64,000 nucleotides of DNA. It comes from Candidatus Omnitrophota bacterium. Its GTDB lineage: Bacteria > Omnitrophota > Gorgyraeia > S143-82. The notes beneath the pieces are model-generated. The model made no database searches, was not told where the DNA came from, and saw nothing but the letters and a program-made list of their open reading frames with translations. This document shows, piece after piece, positions 21 through 54,772 of this stretch (its first letter is position 1; the number at the start of each line of letters is the position of its first letter). The position numbers and the translations under genes were made by a program. Where the stretch lies: contig WGBD01000002.1 in the NCBI GenBank assembly GCA_015494465.1, forward strand, positions 131,683-195,682, read 5' to 3'.

Positions 21-96
21 TGGTGGGCCCACGAGGACTCGAACCTCGAACCAACTGATTATGAGTCAGCTGCTCTGCCGATTGAGCTATGGGCCC
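21..96 (-). tRNA. tRNA-Met (anticodon CAT), elongator-type; tRNA-Ile2(CAT, lysidine) cannot be excluded
   Basis: The reverse complement folds as a canonical cloverleaf. Acceptor GGGCCCA/UGGGCCC, D-arm GCUC..GAGC, anticodon stem GCUGA/UCAGU with loop CUCAUAA, T-arm CGAGG-UUCGAGU-CCUCG, and an encoded CCA. G1-C72 is paired and the anticodon stem lacks 3 GC pairs, so it is not an initiator. Confidence 0.85.
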
Positions 97-1404: not shown

Positions 1405-4044
1405 CTAATCCTTCACGAATCCCTCCAACTCTGCGGTCTCCCTGCTCAGGAACCGGGCTTTGCGCAGTTCCCTACACTGTGGGGTGAGACAAAACCACCT
1501 GAAAGGTGGTCTTCCCGCCCAGAGTCCAAACCTATCTCCATCCGCAAAGCCAAATATGTCTCGGTTGCCCTTTTCCCAGACTATCCCATCCTCCCCGTTC
1601 AAGCGCGTGCGCCGAAACCAGACTTTACTATCCGGAAGATCCCGGGCGGAGACGAAGTTCGGGGACTCGTAGTCCACCTCCGCAACTCCATCTCCCTTGA
1701 GGACCACCTTGTAGCGGTAATTCCTCCTGAGGTCGGGAGGGACATCTATGTACTCCAGACCCAAGTCCCTTGCTAAGGAGGGATCTGCCTTGAGGAGCTG
1801 CAGGTACAGGTACAACTCCTCCCAGGGAGACAGATCTCTGCCCGGAAGCAAACTCATCCCCGCAACCTTCGCCGGTTTGGGCTGAAAGCGAAAGGCACCT
1901 ATCAACTGCCACAGCCCGGAACTGTCCTGCCGATAGACCCTGACCTCCAGCGGTGAATCCGGGATCTTCCCCCTGGGCAACGGCCACAACAGCCTGACAG
2001 ACGAGCCCTGCGGTTGGCACAACAGAAATCCAGCAGTGCCCACCACCTCTTCCCCCATAGCGGTCAGGCGAAAGAGGCCCACATCCACGACCGCTCTCCT
2101 GCCGGTATCGGTCTCAATCAGCATCAGGTCACCAAAGGCCATACGGGTGATGCCCGCCTTCCTTACCGACCGCTTTCCATCCTCCACCTCAATCCATACC
2201 CTATATTGCTGGTGAGAGGTAAACTCTACCTCCCTTCCCCAGAGCCGGAGTTTGTGCCGTCTTTCCCTCTTACGGAGGAAGGACAACCTCCCCCGCAGCG
2301 AATCCCCTATCTCCACCTGAAAGGTCATGTCCACTTCTCTTCCAGCAACCCGAACCAGCCCCCTCTCCAACTGCCAGTACCCAAGCGGATCCTCGGGTAG
2401 GGCAGATGTCCCGAAGATCCTCTCCAGCCAATCCCCGGGAAGGGCCACCCTGCCCAGGCCCTTGCAGAGACCCTCCCTGCACTCCAGACTTCCTCCGAGA
2501 TCCCTCCCCCTCAACTGTAGGGTCAATCCCTTCTCGGTAAATACACCCCTCACCCCGCAAGGGATCTTCAGGTTTGTTCCCCTACACATCACCATCATCC
2601 GCCCTTCCAAGGCCAGCCTTCCACCACCAGCGATTAGACGCAGACCGTCCAACCTGACCCCGATCCTCTCCTCTCTCCCCAGACAGAACGCCTCGCCCTC
2701 CCCATCCTTACCGACGAAGACCAATCGGCCTTTTCCCACAGACCAATCCCCGGATAACGCCTCCCCTCCCACCCGCAAGGACTTACCCTCCATCTGGGCA
2801 TAAGGGACAAGTTCTCCGTGTACCTCCACACCCACGGCCCGAACCTCTCCCGCCCGGTAAGTAAACTTCCCCCTGACGCCTAACTGCCTCAAGCCCCGCA
2901 ACCTTCCCTCCCAAAGGAGATCCACCACCTCGCCGTCAAACTTGGCCTGCCTCATCTTCAGGTCCAATCCCTGCCAGCGCACTCGCCTATTCACCTCGAA
3001 GGGATCCGAGAATATGCGCCCGTCCCTCACCCGAACCTGCACCGACCTGCTGAGCCTTACCCTTTCCCCCCCTACTCTCACCTCTGCATCTCCTTCCAAA
3101 GTCCCCTCCACGGTCTCTCCGCTAATGTTAAGGCTCCCCTCCTCTACGGACAGGCCCAGGTCCCTTATGTACCCCGAATCGATGTCTACTACCAAGTCCC
3201 CATCCTCAAGGCAAAGATTACCCCGAAGGACACCACCTATACCCTCGAAGAACAAGACCACCTTGGCCTTAAAGGAATCCACCTTCAGGCCCTTAAACCC
3301 CAACTCCACCTCCTCTATCCTCATCCTGCCCTCAGGAAGCGGTATCTCCTTCTTTTCCGCAAACAGGTAGACCCCCCGCTTCCCCGGGACGAGGTTCTCC
3401 AGCCGGAGGATCACCTCCTTCCCTGCCAGTCTTATCCCCAACTCCCCATCGACTGGATCCATAGAGACGGTCCTCCCTATCCGCAGACGGGTCTTGAGGA
3501 AACGCCAGGAAATCGGTCCCCGAGAGCGCTCTTTCCTTCCTCCAAGGCGAACGCTTACACTCACCTGCCCGAAAGAAAACAGGGGAACCTGCCCGTCGAG
3601 GTCAACCGCCTCTTCTCGTGAGGTAGTGCTTACATCCAGTCCTAGTATCAACCTCGCCTTAACGACTGGGACCTCCAGATCCAGACTTCCGTTAAACACA
3701 TCTATTCGGACGCTATCTATAAGGAGTTCCGCGGACGGGGATAACTGGATCCGGATGGGACGAAGCAGGTAAAAGGCCTTAGCAACGGCGAATTCCCCTC
3801 TTCCCAGACGATACAGGCACAACCCCTCGGGCCTGAAGACCTTTTCTCCAAAGACGGTGGGCAGACAGAGGGCCTCCACTACGGAGACGACCTCACCCTG
3901 CTCCCACAAGGTCACCGGAGAATAGACCACACCCTTACCAAGGGGAAAGGATGCGGGAAACGGATAAAAAAAGGGCCCTGCAAACGCAGGGCCGGAGACA
4001 AACGAACCTATTATCAGAAACAGGGAGGCCAACCTCAAGACCAC
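1405..4044 (-). CDS. large secreted protein of unknown function (signal peptide; possibly AsmA/TamB-like envelope protein)
   Basis: 879 aa continuous ORF. The N-terminus is a hydrophobic signal peptide (LASLFLIIGSFVSGPAFA). The remainder is a repetitive Gly/Arg/Val-rich beta-type sequence. No family could be assigned by eye. Confidence 0.45.
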   Translation of the reverse strand: MVLRLASLFLIIGSFVSGPAFAGPFFYPFPASFPLGKGVVYSPVTLWEQGEVVSVVEALCLPTVFGEKVFRPEGLCLYRLGRGEFAVAKAFYLLRPIRIQLSPSAELLIDSVRIDVFNGSLDLEVPVVKARLILGLDVSTTSREEAVDLDGQVPLFSFGQVSVSVRLGGRKERSRGPISWRFLKTRLRIGRTVSMDPVDGELGIRLAGKEVILRLENLVPGKRGVYLFAEKKEIPLPEGRMRIEEVELGFKGLKVDSFKAKVVLFFEGIGGVLRGNLCLEDGDLVVDIDSGYIRDLGLSVEEGSLNISGETVEGTLEGDAEVRVGGERVRLSRSVQVRVRDGRIFSDPFEVNRRVRWQGLDLKMRQAKFDGEVVDLLWEGRLRGLRQLGVRGKFTYRAGEVRAVGVEVHGELVPYAQMEGKSLRVGGEALSGDWSVGKGRLVFVGKDGEGEAFCLGREERIGVRLDGLRLIAGGGRLALEGRMMVMCRGTNLKIPCGVRGVFTEKGLTLQLRGRDLGGSLECREGLCKGLGRVALPGDWLERIFGTSALPEDPLGYWQLERGLVRVAGREVDMTFQVEIGDSLRGRLSFLRKRERRHKLRLWGREVEFTSHQQYRVWIEVEDGKRSVRKAGITRMAFGDLMLIETDTGRRAVVDVGLFRLTAMGEEVVGTAGFLLCQPQGSSVRLLWPLPRGKIPDSPLEVRVYRQDSSGLWQLIGAFRFQPKPAKVAGMSLLPGRDLSPWEELYLYLQLLKADPSLARDLGLEYIDVPPDLRRNYRYKVVLKGDGVAEVDYESPNFVSARDLPDSKVWFRRTRLNGEDGIVWEKGNRDIFGFADGDRFGLWAGRPPFRWFCLTPQCRELRKARFLSRETAELEGFVKD

Positions 4045-6883: not shown

Positions 6884-7447
6884 TCACTCCTTCCTGGTCA
6901 AGACCGAGATAAGGACCTTCACCGTGCTGTTGCGATAATCCCAGCTGTCCGGGATGATCGTGATGGATTCTATTTTACACACATACTTGCTGTTTTCAAG
7001 GGCGGAGATAAAGCGACCCAAGTCGTGATACCCTCCTGTACCTATGAAGAGTATCTGGGAGAAGCTCAGGTTGCGGAGCTTTCTGTCTTTGACTGGCACG
7101 GACTCCTTTGGAACTATCTGCTTCAGCTCCAGCCCGCTGTCCTTGGCCATGTTGGCGATGTCCTCCATGAGGAACGGCAGGTCAAACTCCGGCACGATCC
7201 GCTCTTCTATGGCGGATATCTTGTCTTTGAGTCTCTTTATGTAGACCAAGAGCTCCTCGTCCTTGACCTTGGCCCGGCTCTGTTTCAACCGGTTGTATAT
7301 CCTGTGGAACTTCTCGCTCTTTTCGGAGTAACTGGTCCACAAAGGTTGGACCACGAGGAAGTAATTAGCCACCGCAATGACCGCCCCCAGGGCCAAGGAC
7401 AGGCCCAGGACCTTTGCAGTATCGGGATCGATCGCCTTCATACTCAT
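6884..7447 (-). CDS. pilO: type IV pilus assembly protein PilO
   Basis: 187 aa. N-terminal TM helix, coiled coil, then a C-terminal alpha/beta domain. The start overlaps the pilN stop by ATGA. Position in the pilMNO order supports the call. Confidence 0.65.
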   Translation of the reverse strand: MSMKAIDPDTAKVLGLSLALGAVIAVANYFLVVQPLWTSYSEKSEKFHRIYNRLKQSRAKVKDEELLVYIKRLKDKISAIEERIVPEFDLPFLMEDIANMAKDSGLELKQIVPKESVPVKDRKLRNLSFSQILFIGTGGYHDLGRFISALENSKYVCKIESITIIPDSWDYRNSTVKVLISVLTRKE

Positions 7448-8010
7448 TTCTTCTCCGCCAGTGTAAAGACAAGATAAAAGTCCTGCACCTCAGTCGACCC
7501 TATCTTCCTCTGGGTGATGCGCTTGCTAGTCACCGACTTGAAGGACTTCGATATCACCTCGTGCTGGTTCAGGCAGGAGATAAACCTACCCGTAAGACCC
7601 CTTCCCCCTTCCTTGCTGTAAAAGGAGCCCTGTATCACGAGGGTACCCTCCGCCTTATCCATGTCGAACTTGGTAAACCAGCCGGTCTGGGGCAGGCAGT
7701 CGCTTATCACATTCATCACCTCACCCCAGGATACCTTCCTCTTTACCAGCTTCTGGTACTTCCTGAGCCGATCCTCCAACTTCCTCTGCTGTTCCCTCTG
7801 GGGGTAGAGGGTCTTCTCCTTGTTGGTTATCATCTTGATGTCTGCATCCCGCCACATCACCATGATCAACAATACCAGGTCCAGGGCCAAACTCAATACG
7901 AGGAACAAGAGGGGTAAACTGAAGAAGTTGAAGGTAAGCCAAACCGGCAGGCGCACCGTCTTGACCGCGCGCAGTTCTTCAGGTAAGAGGTTGAGTTTTA
8001 TAACTCTCAT
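7444..8010 (-). CDS. pilN: type IV pilus assembly protein PilN
   Basis: 'IKLNLLPEELR' is the PilN N-terminal motif, followed by a TM helix. The internal ATG at 8010 overlaps the pilM stop (ATGA). The ORF track extends the ORF to 8031. Confidence 0.65.
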   Translation of the reverse strand: MRVIKLNLLPEELRAVKTVRLPVWLTFNFFSLPLLFLVLSLALDLVLLIMVMWRDADIKMITNKEKTLYPQREQQRKLEDRLRKYQKLVKRKVSWGEVMNVISDCLPQTGWFTKFDMDKAEGTLVIQGSFYSKEGGRGLTGRFISCLNQHEVISKSFKSVTSKRITQRKIGSTEVQDFYLVFTLAEKK

Positions 8011-9005
8011 ACTATCGTCGCTCCCAAACAAGCGTGGATCATGTCCTGCCTAAACTCCAGGGAATTCTTATCTATGCCCTTACCTATCTCAAACCTCTCC
8101 AACGCAGACCAACCCAGCACCGGTACACCGACGGACTTCTCCAGGTACTCCCGCAGGCCTGGGGTCCTGCTACCCCCACCGCTGATGAATATCTTTGAGA
8201 CCTTACCTAAGGACTGATGCCCGGTGTACTCCATAGAGACCTTTATCTCCTCCGCAAAGCGATAGAAGATCGGCTCCAGGGCGCTCTTGACCTCTGCCTC
8301 CCGCTCCCCAGGATTGCACTTTATTAGTTCCGCCTCTTCGCCGTTGAGGTGGAGAACATCCTCCAAGTGTTCGGTGAACAGATCCCCACCTATGTTTATC
8401 TCCCGGATAACGAACGGGATCCCTTGAGAGACCACGACGAATTCCGTGAAACTGGCACCCACATCCAGGAGCACCACCGTCTTAGAAGGATCGTCTAGTC
8501 TCATAAAGTTAAAGAGGTTAACCAAACAAAGCCCGGCTAACTCTGCAGAGGTCAGTCCAAATCCCGCATCGAGGAAAGGGGCTACCAACTCCTCGATAGC
8601 AGATCTCCTCACCCCAGCCAAGGCCACTAAGGTCTCGGTATCTCTCTCTTCCAAGACCTTGAAGTCCACCACCCTTTCCTCCGGAGGGAAGGGCACATAC
8701 ACCTCTTCCTCGTAGCGGATGGCCTTCTCCAACTCCACCTCGTCCATCCTAGGCAAATCGAGTAACCTGTAGATGGACTGTATCCCGTGGATCACCAGCA
8801 CGATCTGGGAACGCTTGGTATCCAACTTAGGTTGGACCTTGGCGAGAAACTCCTTCAGCTGATCCTGCCCGGAGAGCTTCTCGTAAAAGAAGGCCTCAAT
8901 GATCGGTGCTCGCTTTGCCCCGCGATTCTTGACCTGGGCCACCTTAATGCTCTTGCCGCTGGGGTCTATAGATATGATACGCTTGTCCCTCGAGAAAAAC
9001 GGCAA
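8007..9005 (-). CDS. pilM: type IV pilus assembly ATPase-fold protein PilM
   Basis: 332 aa actin-like fold. Motifs: 'IISIDPSGKSIKVAQV', 'VLLDVGASFTEFVVV' and 'ISGGGSRTPGLREYL'. Confidence 0.8.
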   Translation of the reverse strand: MPFFSRDKRIISIDPSGKSIKVAQVKNRGAKRAPIIEAFFYEKLSGQDQLKEFLAKVQPKLDTKRSQIVLVIHGIQSIYRLLDLPRMDEVELEKAIRYEEEVYVPFPPEERVVDFKVLEERDTETLVALAGVRRSAIEELVAPFLDAGFGLTSAELAGLCLVNLFNFMRLDDPSKTVVLLDVGASFTEFVVVSQGIPFVIREINIGGDLFTEHLEDVLHLNGEEAELIKCNPGEREAEVKSALEPIFYRFAEEIKVSMEYTGHQSLGKVSKIFISGGGSRTPGLREYLEKSVGVPVLGWSALERFEIGKGIDKNSLEFRQDMIHACLGATIV

Positions 9006-9017
9006 ATTCGCGCCCCC

Positions 9018-9848
9018 CTATTTCGTTCTGATTGCCACCTGAAAAACATACTGCGAAGAATCCAGCTCGTATCTAACTCGTATTTTATCATCATCCCGAT
9101 AAAAATTCAAAGAGGAAATCCCAGACACCAAAGACCTAGCAGTCCCAGCAGGCCTCTTGACGAAGATCGTCTCGCCATTGAGGTATATCTCCCAGGGGGA
9201 ATTGGAAAATTCCCTGTCCCCAGAAACCGAATCACAGGTGTAAAACCTTACCAGGCTACCGTCGCTGGAGATCTCTATGGCGTGACTGTCGTCCTCGCAG
9301 GCATCCAGCAGATAACGATAGATCGCGAGGTTGACCCGCTTACTGCGTTCCAGACGGGAGAGCCTGTCCTCAACCGCACGGTATATCGGAGAGATCACTC
9401 TCATAAGGCTTCCGGTCATAAGGACCACTACCGTAAATATCGATATAGCTATTAGCAATTCGACGACGGTGAATCCCTTGCTTAGGTTCTTTAACCCCTT
9501 CAGATAACCCAAGGCCATCAACAGACCCACGCCCAGGAGGAAAAGGACGCCCAACATCAAACGAAGTCTCAAAGACACCTGCGAAGGAGAGGCAGTAGTA
9601 TCCTGCGCATTTGCCCGTTGAGAGGTTTCCTTCCTTTCCCGGAGATTCTCCCGTCGAGGGGAGGGGGTTAGCTTGTAAGAGTGCCTACCTATACGCACTA
9701 CCCGCCTCTTCTCCGAAGGCCCTTCTACCTTAGTCTTTGGCTTCAAGAGACTGCGCTCCTTCACCGCCTTGTCCTGGGGCACGAATCCCAGGCAGAGTAC
9801 TGCCGATACCAAACAAGAGGCCAGGACTAGAGCTCTTTCCACGACCAT
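9018..9848 (-). CDS. minor pilin / pseudopilin (FimT/PilW-like) with prepilin N-methylation motif
   Basis: Class III signal motif 'KG|FTVVELLIAISIF' at residues 124-137 of the ORF. An internal start at 9518 (MALGYLKGLKNLSKG) would give a normal short leader. The upstream 110 codons are Lys/Arg-rich with a hydrophobic N-terminus. Confidence 0.6.
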   Translation of the reverse strand: MVVERALVLASCLVSAVLCLGFVPQDKAVKERSLLKPKTKVEGPSEKRRVVRIGRHSYKLTPSPRRENLRERKETSQRANAQDTTASPSQVSLRLRLMLGVLFLLGVGLLMALGYLKGLKNLSKGFTVVELLIAISIFTVVVLMTGSLMRVISPIYRAVEDRLSRLERSKRVNLAIYRYLLDACEDDSHAIEISSDGSLVRFYTCDSVSGDREFSNSPWEIYLNGETIFVKRPAGTARSLVSGISSLNFYRDDDKIRVRYELDSSQYVFQVAIRTK

Positions 9849-11521
9849 ATCCTTGGCAAATCCAGGTCCCTGGGGAGGTAAAACTTGTCCCTAAACCTCT
9901 CGTCCTTAACCCGGACATCGTAATTCATGATTATGTGTCCGGAAAAGATAATCGCCTCGTCCCTAGCCACTATCCCTCCGTTAAAGGTTATCGCCCCCAC
10001 CCTGCCCGCTATGGCGTGGTTGGTGTAGATGAAGGCGTCAATCTGGGTGATCTGACTGTAGCTGTCCGCAATCTGACGGACGGTAGAGTCCTTAAAACTG
10101 GACTCGTAGTACCTACGGTTGGACCCGTCCTCCTTCTTGCCTCCATCGTAGTCGGTGTAGTCACCGTCGAACCAAGGGTTGCCATCCGCATCGAAATAAC
10201 TAACATAACCATTGCTGGCGTCCGTGCTATCCACCTTATAGGGGGAGGTGAAATAAGGACTCAGATAATACTTGGGGTAATCCCAAGAGGAATCGGTATA
10301 GTCTCCGATTATCACATTCCCCTTGGCAGCCAGACCTAAGAAGTCCTTACTCGCGTTGGCGGTATCTGTGTCTGCCGGGGAGTAGTCGGGTTTTGGCCAG
10401 GAGGGGGGATCCACATACTCCACATTCCCCAGGATGTGCACATTCCTCCCCGCGTAGATGACCCCCTGCCCCTTCACCTTCCCCTTTATCAAGACGTCGC
10501 CCGTTACCACAACCGGTCCGTTTATCTCTATCGGATTGGCGTCCGTGCCCACCAATATCAGGTTACCGTCGTAAACGCCGTTTATAACGGTGCTTCCTCC
10601 TATCTTTAGGGTCCCACCTTTGGTGGTGGCCACCGTCTTGTAGAACCCCAGGTCTCCTAGATAAGGCATGTTTACCGGGGTCTGGTGGGCATAGTGTTGA
10701 GAATCCCCGTCGTAGCCCGAGAGATAGGTGTAGGTGTCCAGCACCCCGTTCCCGTTGAGGTCCTCACCGGGATCTAGCACCCCGTTTCCGTTCGTATCCT
10801 CACTGGGGGCGGAGGGGTTCCCAGGTCTGGCCCGGGCAGGGGCAGTGGAATAGTAGGTCGAGAGGTCGTCCCAGCGGTTCGTCCCGCTTATGTCCCCGTT
10901 GCTCCCCAGCTCAGGGTCCACCCCCGCGTAGACATCGCCGTTGACCTTTGGATCGTACTTCAGAGAGAAGTCCCCGTTAGAGCGGACATCCCCATTTGCA
11001 GTGATAGAATACCCCCAGAACCAACCGTAGTTGTTTATAAAGTAGGCGTAGTCGAAGACCTCGGAGCGGGCTAGACCGTAGCGGATACCCACCTCCAAGG
11101 TCACCGTCATGTTCTCCACCCTTCCCACCGACCTCAGGACCACCAGCCTACCCACATCCTCGTCCAAGGGCTCTACCCGCTCCAGAGTAACCTCGTAAGA
11201 GCCCTCTCCCACGGTACCTGATACCGGGAATGCGTATTGTCCCGTCCCATTGGCAACATCGTCAAACCAAGTAAAACTGGAATCCGTCCAGGCCCCGGAG
11301 GCACCGTAAAAGTGTTCCATGAAACCGTTGTAGAGCTCGGTCTTCACCCGCTCTATCCCTGCCTGGGCGCAGTACAAGGCCTTGGTGTGGAGTCGCTGAT
11401 AGGTGCTGGTGATGTTGGAGCCGATCACCCTCACCGACATAACCGCTAGCATCCCCATGAAGAATACCATCAACGCATAGGAGGTGATCAACATGAAACC
11501 GTCCCGGGCCCCGATCCGCAT
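9827..11521 (-). CDS. PilX-like pilus-associated protein with Asp-rich calcium-binding-type repeats
   Basis: 564 aa. The N-terminus (hydrophobic segment plus 'AQAGIERVKTEL') resembles the PilX_N domain. A central region 'DTNGNGVLDPGEDLNGNGVLD' resembles thrombospondin type 3 or EF-hand-like Ca-binding repeats. Confidence 0.55.
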   Translation of the reverse strand: MRIGARDGFMLITSYALMVFFMGMLAVMSVRVIGSNITSTYQRLHTKALYCAQAGIERVKTELYNGFMEHFYGASGAWTDSSFTWFDDVANGTGQYAFPVSGTVGEGSYEVTLERVEPLDEDVGRLVVLRSVGRVENMTVTLEVGIRYGLARSEVFDYAYFINNYGWFWGYSITANGDVRSNGDFSLKYDPKVNGDVYAGVDPELGSNGDISGTNRWDDLSTYYSTAPARARPGNPSAPSEDTNGNGVLDPGEDLNGNGVLDTYTYLSGYDGDSQHYAHQTPVNMPYLGDLGFYKTVATTKGGTLKIGGSTVINGVYDGNLILVGTDANPIEINGPVVVTGDVLIKGKVKGQGVIYAGRNVHILGNVEYVDPPSWPKPDYSPADTDTANASKDFLGLAAKGNVIIGDYTDSSWDYPKYYLSPYFTSPYKVDSTDASNGYVSYFDADGNPWFDGDYTDYDGGKKEDGSNRRYYESSFKDSTVRQIADSYSQITQIDAFIYTNHAIAGRVGAITFNGGIVARDEAIIFSGHIIMNYDVRVKDERFRDKFYLPRDLDLPRIWSWKEL

Positions 11522-11528
11522 AGTACCG

Positions 11529-12002
11529 CTACCTCCCTATCTGGGAGAATATCGTTGCCAGTCGATAACTCATAGGCCTACCCCTCACCGTCCAGGTCAG
11601 GGTAAGCTCTACCTCCATCACCGCCTTGGTGAGGTGGGGATGGGCGAATCCTGACCACACATAACCGTCGGCGTAGGTGTAGGACCACTGATTGGCGTAA
11701 CCGTTCTTCTCTTCGTCGTAGACCAAAGGGAAGTCCACCTGCACTTGGAGGTTATCCAACCCCCGCCCGTACCCGTTGCTCACGACCCAGTTGCCCCAGT
11801 CCCTGGTCCTTATATCCTCCAAGGGCGAGTCCGCCATCTCCTCCAAGATCGTTTCCGCCAAGTGGACGGCCTGATTCTTCTTCGCCTGGTAGGAGACATC
11901 TAGGACCTGATAGGTGATCAAACCTAACAGGCCTACGACCGCTATCCCCAGCACGAAGACCGCAACGCTCAACTCCACTAGGCTCAGCCCAGTCCTGTCC
12001 AT
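11529..12002 (-). CDS. PilV-like minor pilin (prepilin N-terminal motif)
   Basis: The internal ATG at 12002 gives 'MDRTG|LSLVELSVAVFVLGIAV'. It is preceded by GGAGGGGAG, the same Shine-Dalgarno context as pilA. The ORF track extends the ORF to 12062. Confidence 0.65.
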   Translation of the reverse strand: MDRTGLSLVELSVAVFVLGIAVVGLLGLITYQVLDVSYQAKKNQAVHLAETILEEMADSPLEDIRTRDWGNWVVSNGYGRGLDNLQVQVDFPLVYDEEKNGYANQWSYTYADGYVWSGFAHPHLTKAVMEVELTLTWTVRGRPMSYRLATIFSQIGR

Positions 12003-12008
12003 CTCCCC

Positions 12009-12047
12009 TCCAAAGAAGCGCGAGGGCGGTTCCCCACCGCCCTCGCG
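12009..12047 (-). terminator. intergenic hairpin between pilA and pilV (candidate partial terminator/attenuator)
   Basis: On the minus strand, GCGCGAGGGCGG-UGGGGAA-CCGCCCUCGCG forms a perfect 9-11 bp GC-rich stem. It is followed by CUUCUUUGG. Confidence 0.4.
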
Positions 12048-12086
12048 TCGTACTGCACCCAAAGAAGGCCAAATCAGGCTAAGAGA

Positions 12087-12533
12087 CTATATTCTCTCCC
12101 AACCACCGTTATCACAGGTACCGTTGTAAGCGGTCTGCCAGAGATCACCTCCAGTAAGGGCCTTGTAGCACTTGCTCCCAAAGCGCTCGTTCTTGGGCGT
12201 GGCCAGTATGTTGTAACTGTCGGTGCTGATGGAGACCACATTGATGGTGTAGTGCTGAGATCTCAACTCGATACTGCTACCTGCGTTAGAATACCTGCTG
12301 GGCAATAGGTCGTGATTGGCCAAGGTGCTTAACGGATTGGTGTTCGGATACTCGTCCTCCCTTATGAAGTAGGTCTCCAAGGCGGTGGCTATGGTGCGGA
12401 GCTCTCCCAGCGCGGACTTCTCGTTGGCTGCCTTCCTACTACCCACCATGTTGGGTATGGCCACAGCGATGAGGATTGCGATGATCGCAACCACGATCAT
12501 CATCTCGATCAGCGTGAAACCTCTTCTGTCCAT
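12087..12533 (-). CDS. pilA: type IVa major pilin
   Basis: 'MDRRG|FTLIEMMIVVAIIAILIAVAIPN' is a canonical prepilin leader with Phe1 and Glu5. 148 aa with C-terminal cysteines. GAGGAGGGGAGAG lies directly upstream of the ATG at 12533. The ORF track extends the ORF to 12566. Confidence 0.8.
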   Translation of the reverse strand: MDRRGFTLIEMMIVVAIIAILIAVAIPNMVGSRKAANEKSALGELRTIATALETYFIREDEYPNTNPLSTLANHDLLPSRYSNAGSSIELRSQHYTINVVSISTDSYNILATPKNERFGSKCYKALTGGDLWQTAYNGTCDNGGWERI

Positions 12534-12625
12534 CTCTCCCCTCCTCTTTTTAAGGATAAAGCCCAAGAGTGGTTCTTAACCCAAGCCCTCTGCCGACCTC
12601 CGGAGTCCTTTCACCTCCTTTCCGG

Positions 12626-12660
12626 GCAACAAAAAAACCTGTCCAGCTACGCCAGACAGG
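12626..12660 (-). terminator. intrinsic terminator (expression platform of the pilA leader)
   Basis: Minus strand: ACCUGUC-UGGCGUAGCUG-GACAGGU followed by UUUUUUU. It lies about 90 nt upstream of the pilA start codon. Confidence 0.7.
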
Positions 12661-12666
12661 TTTACC

Positions 12667-12771
12667 CCATCGACCGGCAGCTGGCTGTCCGGACCTCTCT
12701 CCCCCCTTCAGGGCCGAGGCCTTGGGACCCTATAGCTTTGCGCCCCCGCATTCCTGCGGGTTTGCCTTTAT
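12667..12771 (-). ncRNA. c-di-GMP-I (GEMM)-like riboswitch aptamer in the pilA 5' leader
   Basis: Minus-strand RNA: AUAAAGGCAAACC-CGCA-GGAA-UGCG-GGGGCGCAAAGC-UAUAGGGUCC ... GGACAGCC...CCGGUCGAUGG. It aligns with the Vc2 GEMM core: GGGCAAACC-AUUC-GAAA-GAGU-GGGACGCAAAGCC ... CCGAUGG. P1 is capped by a GNRA tetraloop. Confidence 0.5.
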
Positions 12772-12828
12772 CGGTCCAAAATTCAGACTCCAATCCAGCC
12801 AAAGAGCAGTCAATCTCACCCGATTCAA

Positions 12829-12856
12829 AGTATAGTCTATCAATCCTGCCTGTCAA
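12829..12856 (-). promoter_or_regulatory. near-consensus sigma70 promoter (TTGACA-N16-TATACT) driving the pilA leader
   Basis: Minus strand: TTGACAggcaggattgatagacTATACT. It sits just downstream of the porin terminator and about 55 nt upstream of the GEMM-like element. Confidence 0.5.
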
Positions 12857-12869
12857 CTCTCCCCCCCTC

Positions 12870-12908
12870 AAAGAAAAGAAGGGGAGGCGTGCGCAAACAC
12901 ACCTCCCC
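12870..12908 (-). terminator. intrinsic terminator of the porin gene
   Basis: Minus strand: GGGGAGGUGUG-UUUGCG-CACGCCUCCCC followed by UUCUUUUCUUU. It begins about 13 nt after the porin stop codon. Confidence 0.7.
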
Positions 12909-12921
12909 AACACAGCCGACC

Positions 12922-14145
12922 TTAGAAGTTGACGGTCATGCTGCCGAGGACTTCAAGGGCGGTATCGTCCTTCTCGTAGCAGTCACCCGGCCAGAACGCA
13001 GCGACCGTCAGACCGAACTGGACATCGGAGGTGTAATCCCAAGTGAGATACACATCCAGCTCGTTTCCGAGGTCGTCGTCCTTGTCCACGGAACCGTAAG
13101 CAACATCCTCGTCGGCCCAGAAGTGATAGAAGTCAGCGGACAGGGTGACATCCTCCATCACATCCACCGCACCGCTGAGCTTCAGGGCAAGGATGTTGCT
13201 GTCGAAGTCCACTATCTCACCGATGTCCTGATCGTTGTAAGGGGCATACCAGGCCTCGTAATCCCCAGCGGAAGGATCCTTATCACCGCTCCTGTAGAGG
13301 ACTGCCAGACCGACGCTGGCGTTCTTCTCCGCATCCACCACATAGTTGAGGCTGGCGTCTATCGCCATGGCATCGTAATCGTTCTCACCGTAGTCACCGA
13401 AGAGGTAAGCCACCTCCAAGGCACCGGTGAGCCCTTCCATGATCTCGCCGGTCACCCGACCGCCGATGTACTGACGGGCATCGTCGTTGTTGGCCTCAAC
13501 ATCAGTCCCATCGTAGACATAGTAGAGCTCGATTGCAGCGCCCTTGAGGTCGAAGTTGGTGTCCACGACATAGATGTCGCCTTCACGGCTGTCGGTCAGC
13601 CCCCTGGGACGCAGGTAACCGACCTCTACATTGCCGTTGTCCAAGGCGTAATCCACCACGATCCCGTCGAAGGCGGCCTTCTTGTTCAGGTCCTTGAAGG
13701 TCAGGTTGGAAGCGCTGTCAGGGGTCCCGTCGCCGAGGATCAGCTGGGATCCGAGCTCGTACTTCCAGAACCCTGCCTTCAGGGACACCGGAGCGTAAAG
13801 GAACTCCTTCAACTCCGCATAAGCAGCAGCTGCGTAGACATTGTCCACAGCGTTGCCACCGAACTCCCTCTCGTCCCTGAGGAGGACGGTGGTGGAGACA
13901 TTGTCGGTCAGGTCCGCCTGGACCTTTAACTCGGTGGTGGTCATGAAGATGTCACCTGCCTCGTCGGCAGCATCCTCGTCGTAACCAGCACTGCTGGGCG
14001 CCTGTCCCTGCACGACATAGGCGTTACGATAGACGCCCTTTACCTCTAACTTACCGGAAACCTTTACATTCTGCACCTCGGCATAGGCACCTGCGGCCCA
14101 GAGCGCGACGAGTGCAGAGAGCATTAATATGCTGTACTTGCGCAT
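12922..14145 (-). CDS. outer-membrane beta-barrel porin-like protein
   Basis: 407 aa. Signal peptide 'MRKYSILMLSALVALWAAGAYA'. Alternating amphipathic strands rich in Asp, Tyr and Gly. C-terminal Phe ('...MTVNF'). GGAGG Shine-Dalgarno sequence and flanking strong terminators suggest high expression. Confidence 0.6.
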   Translation of the reverse strand: MRKYSILMLSALVALWAAGAYAEVQNVKVSGKLEVKGVYRNAYVVQGQAPSSAGYDEDAADEAGDIFMTTTELKVQADLTDNVSTTVLLRDEREFGGNAVDNVYAAAAYAELKEFLYAPVSLKAGFWKYELGSQLILGDGTPDSASNLTFKDLNKKAAFDGIVVDYALDNGNVEVGYLRPRGLTDSREGDIYVVDTNFDLKGAAIELYYVYDGTDVEANNDDARQYIGGRVTGEIMEGLTGALEVAYLFGDYGENDYDAMAIDASLNYVVDAEKNASVGLAVLYRSGDKDPSAGDYEAWYAPYNDQDIGEIVDFDSNILALKLSGAVDVMEDVTLSADFYHFWADEDVAYGSVDKDDDLGNELDVYLTWDYTSDVQFGLTVAAFWPGDCYEKDDTALEVLGSMTVNF

Positions 14146-26227: not shown

Positions 26228-26320
26228 TGGCGGAGAGGGTGGGATTCGAACCCACGAGCCCGCTCGTCGCAGGCTGCCGGTTTTCAAGACCGGTGCGTTC
26301 ATCCGCTCCGCCACCTCTCC
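26228..26320 (-). tRNA. tRNA-Ser (anticodon TGA)
   Basis: Reverse complement: GGAGAGG acceptor, 3-bp D-stem, anticodon stem CCGGU/ACCGG with loop CUUGAAA, a long variable arm, T-arm UGGGU-UCGAAUC-CCACC, encoded CCA. Confidence 0.85.
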
Positions 26321-31670: not shown

Positions 31671-32110
31671 ATCTGGATCTCTATAATCCAATTCCCACCG
31701 CTCTCTTTGTACTCCACTTTTACTTGTTCAAACTCCTCCACAGCGGATGAAGATAGCACAAAACAGTTATCACCGTCCAGCTTCAACCCTGCACATCCTC
31801 CCCCAGTGACAGTGGACGATATCTTCACTGGAATATTATAGACACAGGTATATCGCTTACCAGGTGTTACCTCTTGCCACCCCTGAGCATAATACAAGGA
31901 AGAATAACCTGCTCCTCCCTTATATCTGCCTTTGCTGATGTCGTAGTGGGCCAGGTGCAAAGCGGAAAGGAGAAGGTCCTCCTTCATAACCGTAGCCATC
32001 CTCTGGATCTGAAACGCCTCTTGGAGGGTGTACATGTAAGTCGCCATTATCGTCAGAAAGATGAGGGTGAACATCAACAACACAAACCAGGTAAATCCTT
32101 TCCTATTCAA
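31667..32110 (-). CDS. hypothetical pilin-like protein (KGFT N-terminus lacking Glu5)
   Basis: 'MNRKGFTWFVLLMFTLIFLTIMA' resembles a class III signal sequence but has no Glu at position +5. Cys-containing beta-type C-terminus. Confidence 0.4.
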   Translation of the reverse strand: MNRKGFTWFVLLMFTLIFLTIMATYMYTLQEAFQIQRMATVMKEDLLLSALHLAHYDISKGRYKGGAGYSSLYYAQGWQEVTPGKRYTCVYNIPVKISSTVTGGGCAGLKLDGDNCFVLSSSAVEEFEQVKVEYKESGGNWIIEIQI

Positions 32111-33578
32111 TCTTCCCTTCCTCCTTTAGGACTTCGCAAAGCGCAGAGAAAACTTTCGGATCGTACCTCTTATCAACCCACCGACCTATCTCCTCCAAGG
32201 CCTCCTTTATGGACATGGCCTTACGGTAAGGCCGATCGCTGGTGAGGGCGTCAAACACATCTGCTACGCACAATATCCTAGCCTCTATAGAGATCTCGTT
32301 TCCCTTCAATCCGTCGGGATAACCCGAACCATCCAACCACTCGTGGTGATGCCTCACCGCATCGCAGAGTCTTCTTAAGGACCGCACGGGTCTTAAGATA
32401 CCTTCTCCTATTACTGGATGCTTATTCATTATCTCCCTTTCCTCAGCGGTCAGAGGACCAGGTTTGTGGAGTATCTCGTCGCTTATCCCTATTTTACCTA
32501 TGTCGTGCATGTCCGCAGCATCCCTAACGATCGATATCTGCTCTTCGGACAGATTCATCTTCCTGGCTATCTTCTCCGCATACTCCGAGACCCTTTTGCT
32601 GTGACCACGACTGTACGGATCCTTGGCCTCAACTGCTATGGCTAAAGCGGAAAGGGTCTCCATGTAGGTCTTCTCCACATCCTCGTTAAGTCTGAGGTTT
32701 TCCAGGGCTACCGCAGTCTGGGTGCCGATGTTGTTTAGTATCAAGAGATCGTCGTCGGTGAAGTTCTCACCCGAGTACTTATCCTCAACCGAAAGGACGC
32801 CCAACAACCGATCCTTGAAGAGCAACGGGACGCATACGATCGTTGGATCCTCTTCGTCTGCAGAAAACACATGGCCTCTGCTAGCTGGGCGTCTGGGAAG
32901 ACACATCGCCTTCTTCTCCAGGGCAACCCACCCCTCTATCCCCTTGCCTATTGGTACTCTGCGCGCCCCTATCTCACTCTTGCGTCCACCTGATATGAAC
33001 TTTACATACAATTCCTGTTTCTCCTCGTCCACTAACCAAAGCCTAGCAACCCGCGCGTCCAGTGCCTGGGCTATCGTGTTGACCATCAGCTCCAAGAACC
33101 CATCTATAGTCGAAGACCCAGCCAATCCTTCGCCTATCTTCATAAGCACCTCTTCCAACAGCTTCTTAGAGGCCTTTAGCTTCTCCATACTCTTCTCCAA
33201 CTCGTCCACCAGGTCGTTAAGCCCTTTGGCCATCTCCCCTATCTCGTCCCTAGAATCCACATTGAGTCTGTAGTGGAGGTCCCCGGAGAGTATCCTCCTC
33301 ATCCCCGAGACTATGTACAATATGTTGCGGACCCAACGCTTGAGCAAAAAGTAGCCTGTAAGCGATAGGGCCAGAAGCATTAGGTAGAGAAGGGCCACCT
33401 GAGGGGAATAGAGTTTATCCGGGACATATCGATAGAAGATCCAATAGATCACCACGAAAGGGACGAAGGAGATAGCAAAATAGATGGTTATTATCTTCCT
33501 TTGCAGGCTTTGCCCCTCTATAGAAAGCTCAAGCGCGGTGAGATCTACCGGCTTCTTTCTGGACCTTCGTCTGCTCAT
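32103..33578 (-). CDS. HD-GYP-domain c-di-GMP phosphodiesterase with TM, HAMP and GAF domains
   Basis: TM region, then a HAMP domain (GEMAKGLNDLVDELE). GAF-like middle region. 'HDIGKIGI' and 'HHEWLDGSGYPDGL' are the HD-GYP motifs. Confidence 0.8.
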   Translation of the reverse strand: MSRRRSRKKPVDLTALELSIEGQSLQRKIITIYFAISFVPFVVIYWIFYRYVPDKLYSPQVALLYLMLLALSLTGYFLLKRWVRNILYIVSGMRRILSGDLHYRLNVDSRDEIGEMAKGLNDLVDELEKSMEKLKASKKLLEEVLMKIGEGLAGSSTIDGFLELMVNTIAQALDARVARLWLVDEEKQELYVKFISGGRKSEIGARRVPIGKGIEGWVALEKKAMCLPRRPASRGHVFSADEEDPTIVCVPLLFKDRLLGVLSVEDKYSGENFTDDDLLILNNIGTQTAVALENLRLNEDVEKTYMETLSALAIAVEAKDPYSRGHSKRVSEYAEKIARKMNLSEEQISIVRDAADMHDIGKIGISDEILHKPGPLTAEEREIMNKHPVIGEGILRPVRSLRRLCDAVRHHHEWLDGSGYPDGLKGNEISIEARILCVADVFDALTSDRPYRKAMSIKEALEEIGRWVDKRYDPKVFSALCEVLKEEGKIE

Positions 33579-54700: not shown

Positions 54701-54772
54701 TTGCCCCGCCTGGATTCGAACCAGGACTACTTGATCCAGAGTCAAGCGTGCTACCAGTTGCACCACGGGGCA
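54701..54772 (-). tRNA. tRNA-Gln (anticodon CTG), CCA not encoded
   Basis: Reverse complement: UGCCCCG acceptor, D-arm GUGC-AACUGGUA-GCAC, anticodon stem CUUGA/UCAAG with loop CUCUGGA, T-arm CCUGG-UUCGAAU-CCAGG, discriminator A. Confidence 0.85.

Follow-up and report, generated by a model that had tools for sequence, protein, structure and literature searches.

The leader of a pilin operon on the minus strand of the DNA analysed here (64,000 nucleotides (nt) of contig WGBD01000002.1 from a Candidatus Omnitrophota bacterium, referred to as the window; all coordinates are those of the window) very probably contains, by sequence and structure prediction, a riboswitch of the c-di-GMP-I (GEMM-I) family. 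According to the folding models, binding of cyclic di-guanosine monophosphate (c-di-GMP) would probably switch transcription of the pilin gene OFF by means of termination. The layout is that of an ordinary class I riboswitch; the element is thus a fresh instance of a well-known RNA family and not a novel type of element, but as an instance it is well conserved and comes from an unusual phylum. An earlier interpretation of the same DNA, made before any database search (the sequence-only reading), had proposed a promoter, a GEMM-like aptamer and an intrinsic terminator upstream of the major pilin gene pilA, and had suggested that c-di-GMP gates pilA transcription through switching between terminator and antiterminator. 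All of the elements named there were found on the minus strand at the places given, well above chance level.

Identification and structure of the aptamer

The whole window was scanned with the Rfam models at the gathering threshold, which returned three tRNAs and one riboswitch match. The latter, at 12775..12672 on the minus strand, covers the full model and scores 61.0 bits, where the gathering score is 59; its E-value for the 64-kb window is 6.1e-12. Such a covariance-model search had been proposed as a check in the sequence-only reading, and it confirmed the GEMM/c-di-GMP-I aptamer in the window itself and in each of the eight orthologous loci whose upstream DNA was long enough. The expected c-di-GMP-I clan was hit, but the best-scoring model was RF03167 (c-di-GMP-I-GGC), 2 bits over its gathering score, and not RF01051; one further member of the clan (CL00126) also passes its own gathering score. 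A permissive Rfam rescan of the leader region yielded nothing else meaningful.

Covariance model, consensus folding (alifold) and covariation place the aptamer at 12776..12672 (-), and all of the features that define GEMM RNAs are present, i.e. the first hairpin, its GNRA cap, the AAA linker and P2. In the published definition, the first hairpin consists of a 2-base-pair (bp) stem, a 3-nt internal loop and a 6-bp stem with a GNRA tetraloop, and the linker between the two GEMM hairpins is 'virtually always AAA' (PMC1950547). The first hairpin of the window fits this definition, reading GC / AAA / CCCGCA-GGAA-UGCGGG / GGC / GC at 12765..12740, where the GC/GC pairs form P1a and CCCGCA-GGAA-UGCGGG forms P1b (12760..12745). 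The sequence-only reading had recognised the GGAA cap but had assigned it to a stem of 4 bp, whereas the stem (CCCGCA/UGCGGG) has 6 bp. In the orthologues, the cap is either GGAA or GAAA, and two pairs of this hairpin show compensatory changes. The AAA linker (12739..12737) is invariant in seven orthologues. The second helix, P2, comprises 10 bp between AGCU..GGGUCC (12737..12725) and GGAC-AG-CC-AGCU (12690..12679), contains a conserved CCYAAG motif resembling one half of the 11-nt receptor, and encloses an additional hairpin in its loop (12721..12692). The aptamer is closed by P1, a helix of 5 bp formed by GACCG (12776..12772) and CGGUC (12676..12672); the likeness of the 3' end to that of the Vibrio cholerae Vc2 RNA, on which the sequence-only reading had relied, turned out to be a coincidental 'CGAUGG' resemblance.

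With regard to the ligand pocket, we follow the numbering of the Vc2 structures, in which G20, A47 and C92 contact the ligand. Alignment to the model places the equivalent of G20 at 12766, a position occupied by G in the window as well as in every orthologue. The equivalent of A47 is the first A of the AAA linker (12739), invariant in seven orthologues, and that of C92 lies between P2 and the 3' strand of P1 (12677) and is invariant in the orthologues as well. Judged by alignment, G20/A47/C92 is the canonical c-di-GMP signature, and the pocket is predicted to bind this ligand.

The RF03167 label and ligand specificity

Since RF03167 is the best match within the clan, we considered whether the RNA might be a variant, either of the 'c-di-GMP-I-GGC' kind or of the GEMM-Ib kind specific for cyclic GMP-AMP (c-GAMP), that senses a ligand other than c-di-GMP. 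Position 43 would speak for such a variant too, as it is G and not the consensus A in most orthologues (GGGGCGC). The defining positions speak against it, and we regard an altered specificity as very unlikely. The consensus sequences of RF03167 (GGGACGCGAAgCc, with ACGCGAAgCc) and RF01051 (gGACGCAAAgCc, with ACGCAAAgCc) differ at the base aligned with Vc2 A47, and it is a G at this base to which 'GGC' presumably refers, a meaning that we derive from the two consensus lines. The window reads GCGCAAAGCU with A at 12739, and all orthologues likewise have A, so the base that sets the GGC variant apart is absent. At 12766 there is a G and not the A20 of c-GAMP switches; c-GAMP-selective relatives of GEMM are reported to carry A at position 20 (Kellenberger 2015, Nelson 2015), and the GEMM-Ib feature is thus missing as well.

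The label itself proved to be non-discriminating. In a scan of metagenomes with a pattern that required A47, 20 of the resulting loci were chosen and rescanned with Rfam; in this A47-selected sample (loci in the range L087-L189), RF03167 was assigned to 16 of the 24 aptamers with 59-77 bits, and the label therefore does not separate GGC variants from aptamers with A47. Clan competition thus tags many canonical A47 aptamers as 'GGC variant', and automatic annotation would mislabel them. The outer P1 helix is modelled by RF03167 and absent from RF01051, which is probably the reason for the higher score of RF03167.

Conservation of the leader in orthologous loci

Nine full-length orthologues of the pilin were found, with identities from 96 to 50%, the closest pilin locus among species-representative genomes being that of an Omnitrophota metagenome-assembled genome (L002). 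The Rho protein encoded in the window likewise has 79-83% identity to proteins named Candidatus Omnitrophota. Eight orthologous loci had enough upstream DNA for comparison of the leader (L002, L202, L203, L204, L205, L206, L208 and L210), and seven leaders were aligned. Promoter, aptamer and terminator are kept in all eight loci, the aptamer scoring 60.6-65.4 bits in each of them, and two short contigs contain truncated 3' parts of the aptamer at their ends. In the alignment of the leaders, three short blocks are conserved along with promoter, aptamer and terminator, while the sequence in between is scrambled.

Across the seven leaders, 98.1% of the cells in the 46 pairs of aptamer and terminator are paired, and double changes occur in seven pairs distributed over P1, P1b, P2 and the P2-loop hairpin. 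None of 500 shuffles was as good, and slid registers gave only 34-52% pairing. P2 is 100% paired with one double change, and P1 is 100% paired with changes from A-U to G-C. Unaided, RNAalifold recovers P1, P1a, P1b, P2 and the terminator.

A protein-coding explanation for the conserved stretch is suggested by public gene calls, in which open reading frames (ORFs) of 67-83 amino acids (aa) cover the leader in the window (12913..12662 (-)) and in L202 (1531-1764), L203 (1604-1837), L204 (187-420), L205 (2010-2249), L206 (1417-1623) and L208 (2639-2842). That these ORFs encode a small protein is extremely unlikely. Anchored on the aptamer, the frame contains stops in L206; it switches between orthologues after the insertion or deletion in the P2 loop (VRTASCRS vs GPDSQLPV); the N-terminal parts are unrelated among the orthologues; and conservation tracks the RNA helices and not the codons. 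Because of the in-frame stops and frame changes, we consider the leader ORF spurious.

Two larger sets of loci were scanned as well. The metagenome scan with the subfamily pattern returned 120 diverse GEMM-I loci, none of which was closely related to the present leader. Our own model R1, which detected the aptamer in 60 of 60 loci of a positive control, found a GEMM-I aptamer in none of 79 loci with pilin homologues from other lineages, and the association of pilin and aptamer is therefore clade-specific within this sample. Among the metagenome contigs, unrelated GEMM-I aptamers lie directly upstream of prepilin-type genes in L089, L104, L156, L160 and L181, and several loci (e.g. L117, L122, L146, L185 and L189) carry tandem aptamers.

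Over 400 nt of leader, no difference between L202 and L204 is apparent in the alignment, yet the pilins encoded by these two loci are 96% and 81% identical, respectively, to the pilin of the window. It seems that the coding sequence of the pilin diversifies, or recombines, at a much higher rate than the leader.

Terminator, predicted antiterminator and predicted direction of regulation

Downstream of the aptamer, the leader contains the strong intrinsic terminator claimed by the sequence-only reading, conserved in the orthologues (AAACCUGUCUGGC-GUA-GCUGGACAGGUUU, 12663..12631 (-)). It consists of a 13-bp stem with a 3-nt loop at 12663..12635 and a U7 tract at 12637..12631, and would release a transcript of about 190 nt. 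In the seven leaders, the terminator helix is 97.8% paired with one-sided changes, and its loop varies in length and sequence. The 3' strand of P1 (12676..12672) and the 5' arm of the terminator (from 12663) are 8-11 nt apart and do not overlap. Aptamer and terminator can therefore coexist, which is the layout of an OFF switch.

Folding of nascent prefixes and comparison of the orthologues led to a predicted antiterminator hairpin at 12684..12643 (-). Its 5' side is made of CCAGCUGC (12684..12677, comprising the 3' strand of P2, a G and C92) and GUCGAUGGG (12674..12666, the 3' strand of P1 and the linker), and its 3' side of CCUGUC (12660..12655), a U, GGC (12653..12651) and GUAGCUGG (12650..12643). 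This hairpin is mutually exclusive with P1, P2 and the terminator; the folding check on the 3' strand of the aptamer and the 5' strand of the terminator, suggested in the sequence-only reading, thus found the pairing that was looked for. Nascent prefixes ending at 12645-12639 have the antiterminator as their minimum-energy fold, and an equivalent hairpin exists in all seven aligned orthologues. With the distal 3' arm absent, the antiterminator fold has an advantage of 6.1-13.9 kcal/mol over the enforced ligand-free aptamer in seven of seven sequences. With affinities such as those of Vc2 (pM-nM), ligand binding together with tertiary contacts could plausibly offset a gap of 6-14 kcal/mol.

The linker between aptamer and terminator differs in sequence between lineages, yet remains complementary to the invariant 5' arm of the terminator. 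When the linker was shuffled, fractions of 0.008-0.046 did as well in four lineages, 0.14 in L210 and 0.32 in the window, and a Fisher combination over these six independent lineages, calculated by hand, gave approximately 5e-4. The helices of the ligand-free state (P1-5'/P2-5', P2-3'/3' arm and P1-3'/5' arm) are 90-100% paired across the orthologues, and at the top of the terminator stem there are invariant G-U wobbles, in keeping with strands that are constrained to pair in two ways. A shorter antiterminator, formed by CCGGACAG (12692..12685) and CUGUCUGG (12659..12652), is the minimum-energy fold in L202 only and would imply the same OFF sign.

According to the mechanism that we propose, transcription would begin at a sigma-70 promoter, with a start site near 12822. 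Binding of c-di-GMP to the nascent aptamer (12776..12672) through the G20/A47/C92 pocket would lock P1 and P2, leaving the 5' arm of the terminator free, so that the 13-bp/U7 terminator would form and the transcript of about 190 nt would be released ahead of pilA. In the absence of ligand, the linker together with the 3' strands of P2 and P1 (12684..12666) would pair with the 5' arm and the top of the 3' arm of the terminator (12660..12643), and this antiterminator would let RNA polymerase read into pilA, the minor pilin genes and pilMNO. Gating of pilA by c-di-GMP through terminator/antiterminator switching is therefore supported at the level of prediction, and the models add a predicted direction, OFF, which the sequence-only reading had left unstated. 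The OFF logic arises because a single conserved structure competes with the terminator, and this structure draws on the 3' strands of the aptamer itself.

Promoter and layout of the leader

The 5' limit of the leader unit is set by the intrinsic terminator of the upstream porin gene (12908..12881 (-)), the gene itself being of the Alginate_exp type and located at 12922..14145. The sigma-70-type promoter lies at 12856..12829 (-), with the -35 box TTGACA at 12856..12851, a 16-nt spacer and the -10 box TATACT at 12834..12829. It matches the consensus at 11 of 12 positions and is the only site of this quality between the porin and the pilin gene, with four promoter-like sites counted in 3 kb against 1.4 expected. 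A -35/-10 pair is found at the equivalent place in the orthologous leaders, and the promoter described by the sequence-only reading is thus both present where it was put and conserved in position. The distances given there, about 55 nt from promoter to aptamer and about 90 nt from terminator to Shine-Dalgarno sequence, agree with our values, as P1 begins about 52 nt after the -10 box and the U-tract is followed after about 85-90 nt by the Shine-Dalgarno sequence of pilA; the terminator ends about 100 nt upstream of the prepilin gene. The order promoter, aptamer, antiterminator/terminator and pilin is kept in the orthologues, i.e. the aptamer has the 5' position and the expression platform of a riboswitch.

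The leader could also be a decaying or non-regulating relic, in which 12663..12631 would act as a constitutive attenuator or pilA would be transcribed mainly from an unrecognised promoter further downstream. In C. difficile, four of twelve class I riboswitches are non-functional (PMC6366702), and a conserved block near pilA (GGCUUUAUC, see below) could belong to a promoter or to a binding site for a protein. Aptamer, terminator and antiterminator complementarity nevertheless persist while the pilin has diverged to 50% identity and the flanking leader is scrambled, compensatory changes keep the helices intact, and a simple promoter scan detected no sigma-70-like site downstream of the terminator. 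On these grounds, a relic appears quite improbable.

Further conserved blocks in the leader

The first of the three short conserved blocks is the motif UGCUCUUUG (12808..12800 (-); UGYUCUUUG in the orthologues), which lies between the putative transcription start and the aptamer and is conserved in seven leaders. In several leaders it could fold into a small hairpin together with an AGAG-rich stretch further downstream; when a partner of UGYUCUUUG was sought in the core of the aptamer or in a short 5' hairpin, no consistent structure resulted.

The second block, directly after the terminator and conserved in all orthologues, is a perfect Shine-Dalgarno-like sequence, AAGGAGGUGA, within CCCGGAAAGGAGGUGA (12620..12611 (-)). 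Translation of a leader peptide behind it was ruled out, as there is no conserved start codon or frame. The block would occur in read-through transcripts only, and it resembles the STAB-SD mRNA stabiliser GAAAGGAGG of Bacillus thuringiensis cryIIIA.

The third block, GGCUUUAUC (12563..12555 (-), also written GGCUUUAU(C)), is found in all orthologues 10-45 nt upstream of the ribosome-binding site of pilA. It is complementary to the GAUAAAG of the aptamer, but a pairing of the two was rejected, as the aptamer side is altered in L210 with no compensating change. A sigma-54 promoter at TGGCTTTAT was likewise discarded, the spacing of GG-N10-GC being wrong on inspection, and the block fits neither a sigma-54 nor a sigma-70 promoter.

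Weighing the predicted OFF regulation

Several observations weigh against termination by c-di-GMP as described above. The linker-shuffle test was not significant in the window itself (0.32). The strands of the antiterminator are nearly invariant and show no true compensatory covariation among the aligned orthologues, their changes being one-sided with the exception of one double change. Once the full terminator is present, the terminated fold has the lowest energy overall even if no ligand is bound, and the nearest-neighbour energies on which all of these comparisons are based ignore tertiary structure and folding kinetics. The three conserved blocks (12808..12800, 12620..12611 and 12563..12555) have no place in the proposed mechanism, and there may be an unrecognised second promoter downstream of the terminator. 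Finally, high c-di-GMP usually promotes pili related to adhesion, which makes OFF the less expected sign.

A rival explanation is that the same aptamer turns expression ON, or that its main effect is on translation or mRNA stability; c-di-GMP would then raise pilin expression as it does at C. difficile pilA1, perhaps via the blocks behind the terminator. In general, c-di-GMP favours adhesive pili, and the conserved AAGGAGGUGA and GGCUUUAUC between terminator and pilA would find a role. Class I riboswitches can indeed be ON switches (Bc2) or act without termination (Vc1 and Vc2) (PMC6366702), and many GEMM terminators overlap P2 in an ON arrangement (PMC1950547). In the present leader, however, the terminator overlaps neither P1 nor P2, so that the bound aptamer and the terminator can coexist, no conserved structure competes with the terminator except the one formed by the 3' strands of the aptamer, and no structure was found in which the bound ligand would block the terminator. 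We therefore consider ON regulation unlikely and OFF regulation by termination the probable mode of action.

The pilin operon and its surroundings

The prepilin gene behind the leader (pilA, ATG at 12533 and stop at 12087 (-)) is preceded by the Shine-Dalgarno sequence GAGGAGG (12546..12540 (-)) and encodes 148 aa starting with MDRRG|FTLIEM (N_methyl 1.1e-9, ComP_DUS 1.8e-6). The N-terminus, MDRRG|FTLIEMMIVVAIIAIL, has the hallmarks of a type IV pilin, namely a class III signal peptide, a G|F cleavage site, E5 and a hydrophobic helix, and the neighbouring genes encode pilus assembly proteins. Position and size suggest that this prepilin is the major subunit. As the sequence-only reading had noticed, the leader thus precedes a pilin gene; the prepilin heads a cluster of pilin, minor pilin and PilM-PilN-PilO genes.

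The probable remainder of the operon extends over 12062..6884 (-), with a gene order that is shared with the orthologous loci. It comprises a prepilin-like gene (12002..11529), a gene for a 564-aa protein that has no Pfam match and is conserved in all orthologous loci (11521..9827), a second prepilin-like gene (9848..9018), PilM (9005..8007), an ORF in the position of PilN (8031..7444) and PilO (7447..6884), all on the minus strand. Between pilA and the next prepilin-like gene, there is a 12-bp GC-rich hairpin with a weak U-tract (12047..12019 (-)), which looks like a partial terminator; the pilin transcript would then exceed the transcript of the downstream genes. Further downstream, an ORF of 879 aa (1405..4044 (-)) has no Pfam match.

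Upstream of the leader, the Alginate_exp porin gene is syntenic in most of L202, L203, L205, L206, L208 and L210. A rhodanese gene is inserted between porin and leader in L205 and L208, and a divergent gene for a dCache-HAMP-MCP chemoreceptor is located upstream in L210 instead.

With regard to c-di-GMP metabolism, the ORF at 33578..32103 encodes a HAMP-GAF-HD-GYP protein with intact HD and HHEWLDGSGYP motifs, and no GGDEF, EAL or PilZ domain was detected in the 64-kb window. The HD-GYP gene named by the sequence-only reading is therefore genuine, but the tie to the riboswitch is of a generic nature only; the gene lies at a distance of 20 kb, surrounded by housekeeping genes, and indicates no more than that c-di-GMP is turned over by the organism. 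The other large ORFs that were scanned in the window are housekeeping or transport genes or have no Pfam match. The three tRNAs are one with a long variable arm (26231..26320 (-), 90 nt, 60.3 bits) and two ordinary ones (24..96 and 54701..54772).

Significance for Omnitrophota and comparison with known systems

Omnitrophota are nanobacteria whose type IVa pili have been proposed to attach them to host cells and to underlie a predatory or symbiotic lifestyle, and the phylum is not known to have cultured free-living representatives. In the main genomic survey of the phylum, type IVa pili are singled out as a trait of interaction with hosts, and neither riboswitches nor c-di-GMP are mentioned (PMC10066038). 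If our interpretation is true, the leader would provide a concrete and testable regulatory input, c-di-GMP, for the expression of type IV pili in Omnitrophota. As a tentative extension that is quite possible, the pilin operon may be tied to c-di-GMP with a sign opposite to the textbook, the pili being organelles of low c-di-GMP that serve searching or twitching motility, with an extra layer of control in AAGGAGGUGA and GGCUUUAUC behind the terminator; the leader would then also be the first cis-regulatory link from a second messenger to a host-interaction trait in this uncultivated phylum. What is known about the riboswitch class itself is unchanged by the present element.

The architecture of the aptamer is best compared with Vc2, the V. 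cholerae tfoX-like RNA that serves as the structural reference of RF01051. Both share GGCAAACC, a GNRA-capped hairpin, GGGRCGC, the AAA linker, P2, a closing P1 and G, A and C at the positions of G20, A47 and C92. In contrast to Vc2, which acts without termination (PMC6366702), the Omnitrophota RNA is predicted to act through a terminator, and its P2 has the receptor-like CCCAAG motif and the inserted hairpin. The RF03167 GGC candidates resemble it in overall architecture including the outer P1, but the G47 that defines them is absent, there being an A here, and the match is a cross-hit of the models.

An association of GEMM RNAs with type IV pili is not new, as they have been linked with pilM, pilO, pilQ and pili genes since their discovery, and the RNAs upstream of pilM/pilO/pilQ and pili-assembly genes in Geobacter and other bacteria belong to the same family and show the same association (PMC1950547). 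The Omnitrophota RNA differs in that it directly precedes a pilin gene and comes from another phylum. It also has G20, and several of the Geobacter RNAs reportedly respond to c-GAMP by way of A20.

In its predicted mode of action, the element comes closest to Cd1 (Cdi-1-3) of the C. difficile flgB operon, where a GEMM-I aptamer is also followed by an intrinsic terminator and c-di-GMP raises the terminated product, i.e. acts as OFF switch; all seven functional class I switches of C. difficile are transcriptional OFF switches (PMC6366702). The Omnitrophota leader is predicted to be alike in that aptamer and terminator are separate and the antiterminator is formed from the 3' strands of the aptamer. 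The two differ in that Cd1 controls flagella in a Firmicute, whereas the Omnitrophota RNA belongs to a type IV pilin operon and carries a hairpin of about 30 nt inserted into the P2 loop.

The sole validated pilin riboswitch is Cdi-2-4 at C. difficile pilA1, which belongs to class II and is an ON switch (PMC6366702). It resembles the Omnitrophota element, as modelled here, in its ligand c-di-GMP, in having a major pilin as target, in partial read-through into pilus genes and in control by a terminator, but it has an unrelated class II fold and is ON as opposed to the OFF predicted here (PMC6366702). With signs that would be opposite for two pilin genes, the direction of regulation must be read from each expression platform.

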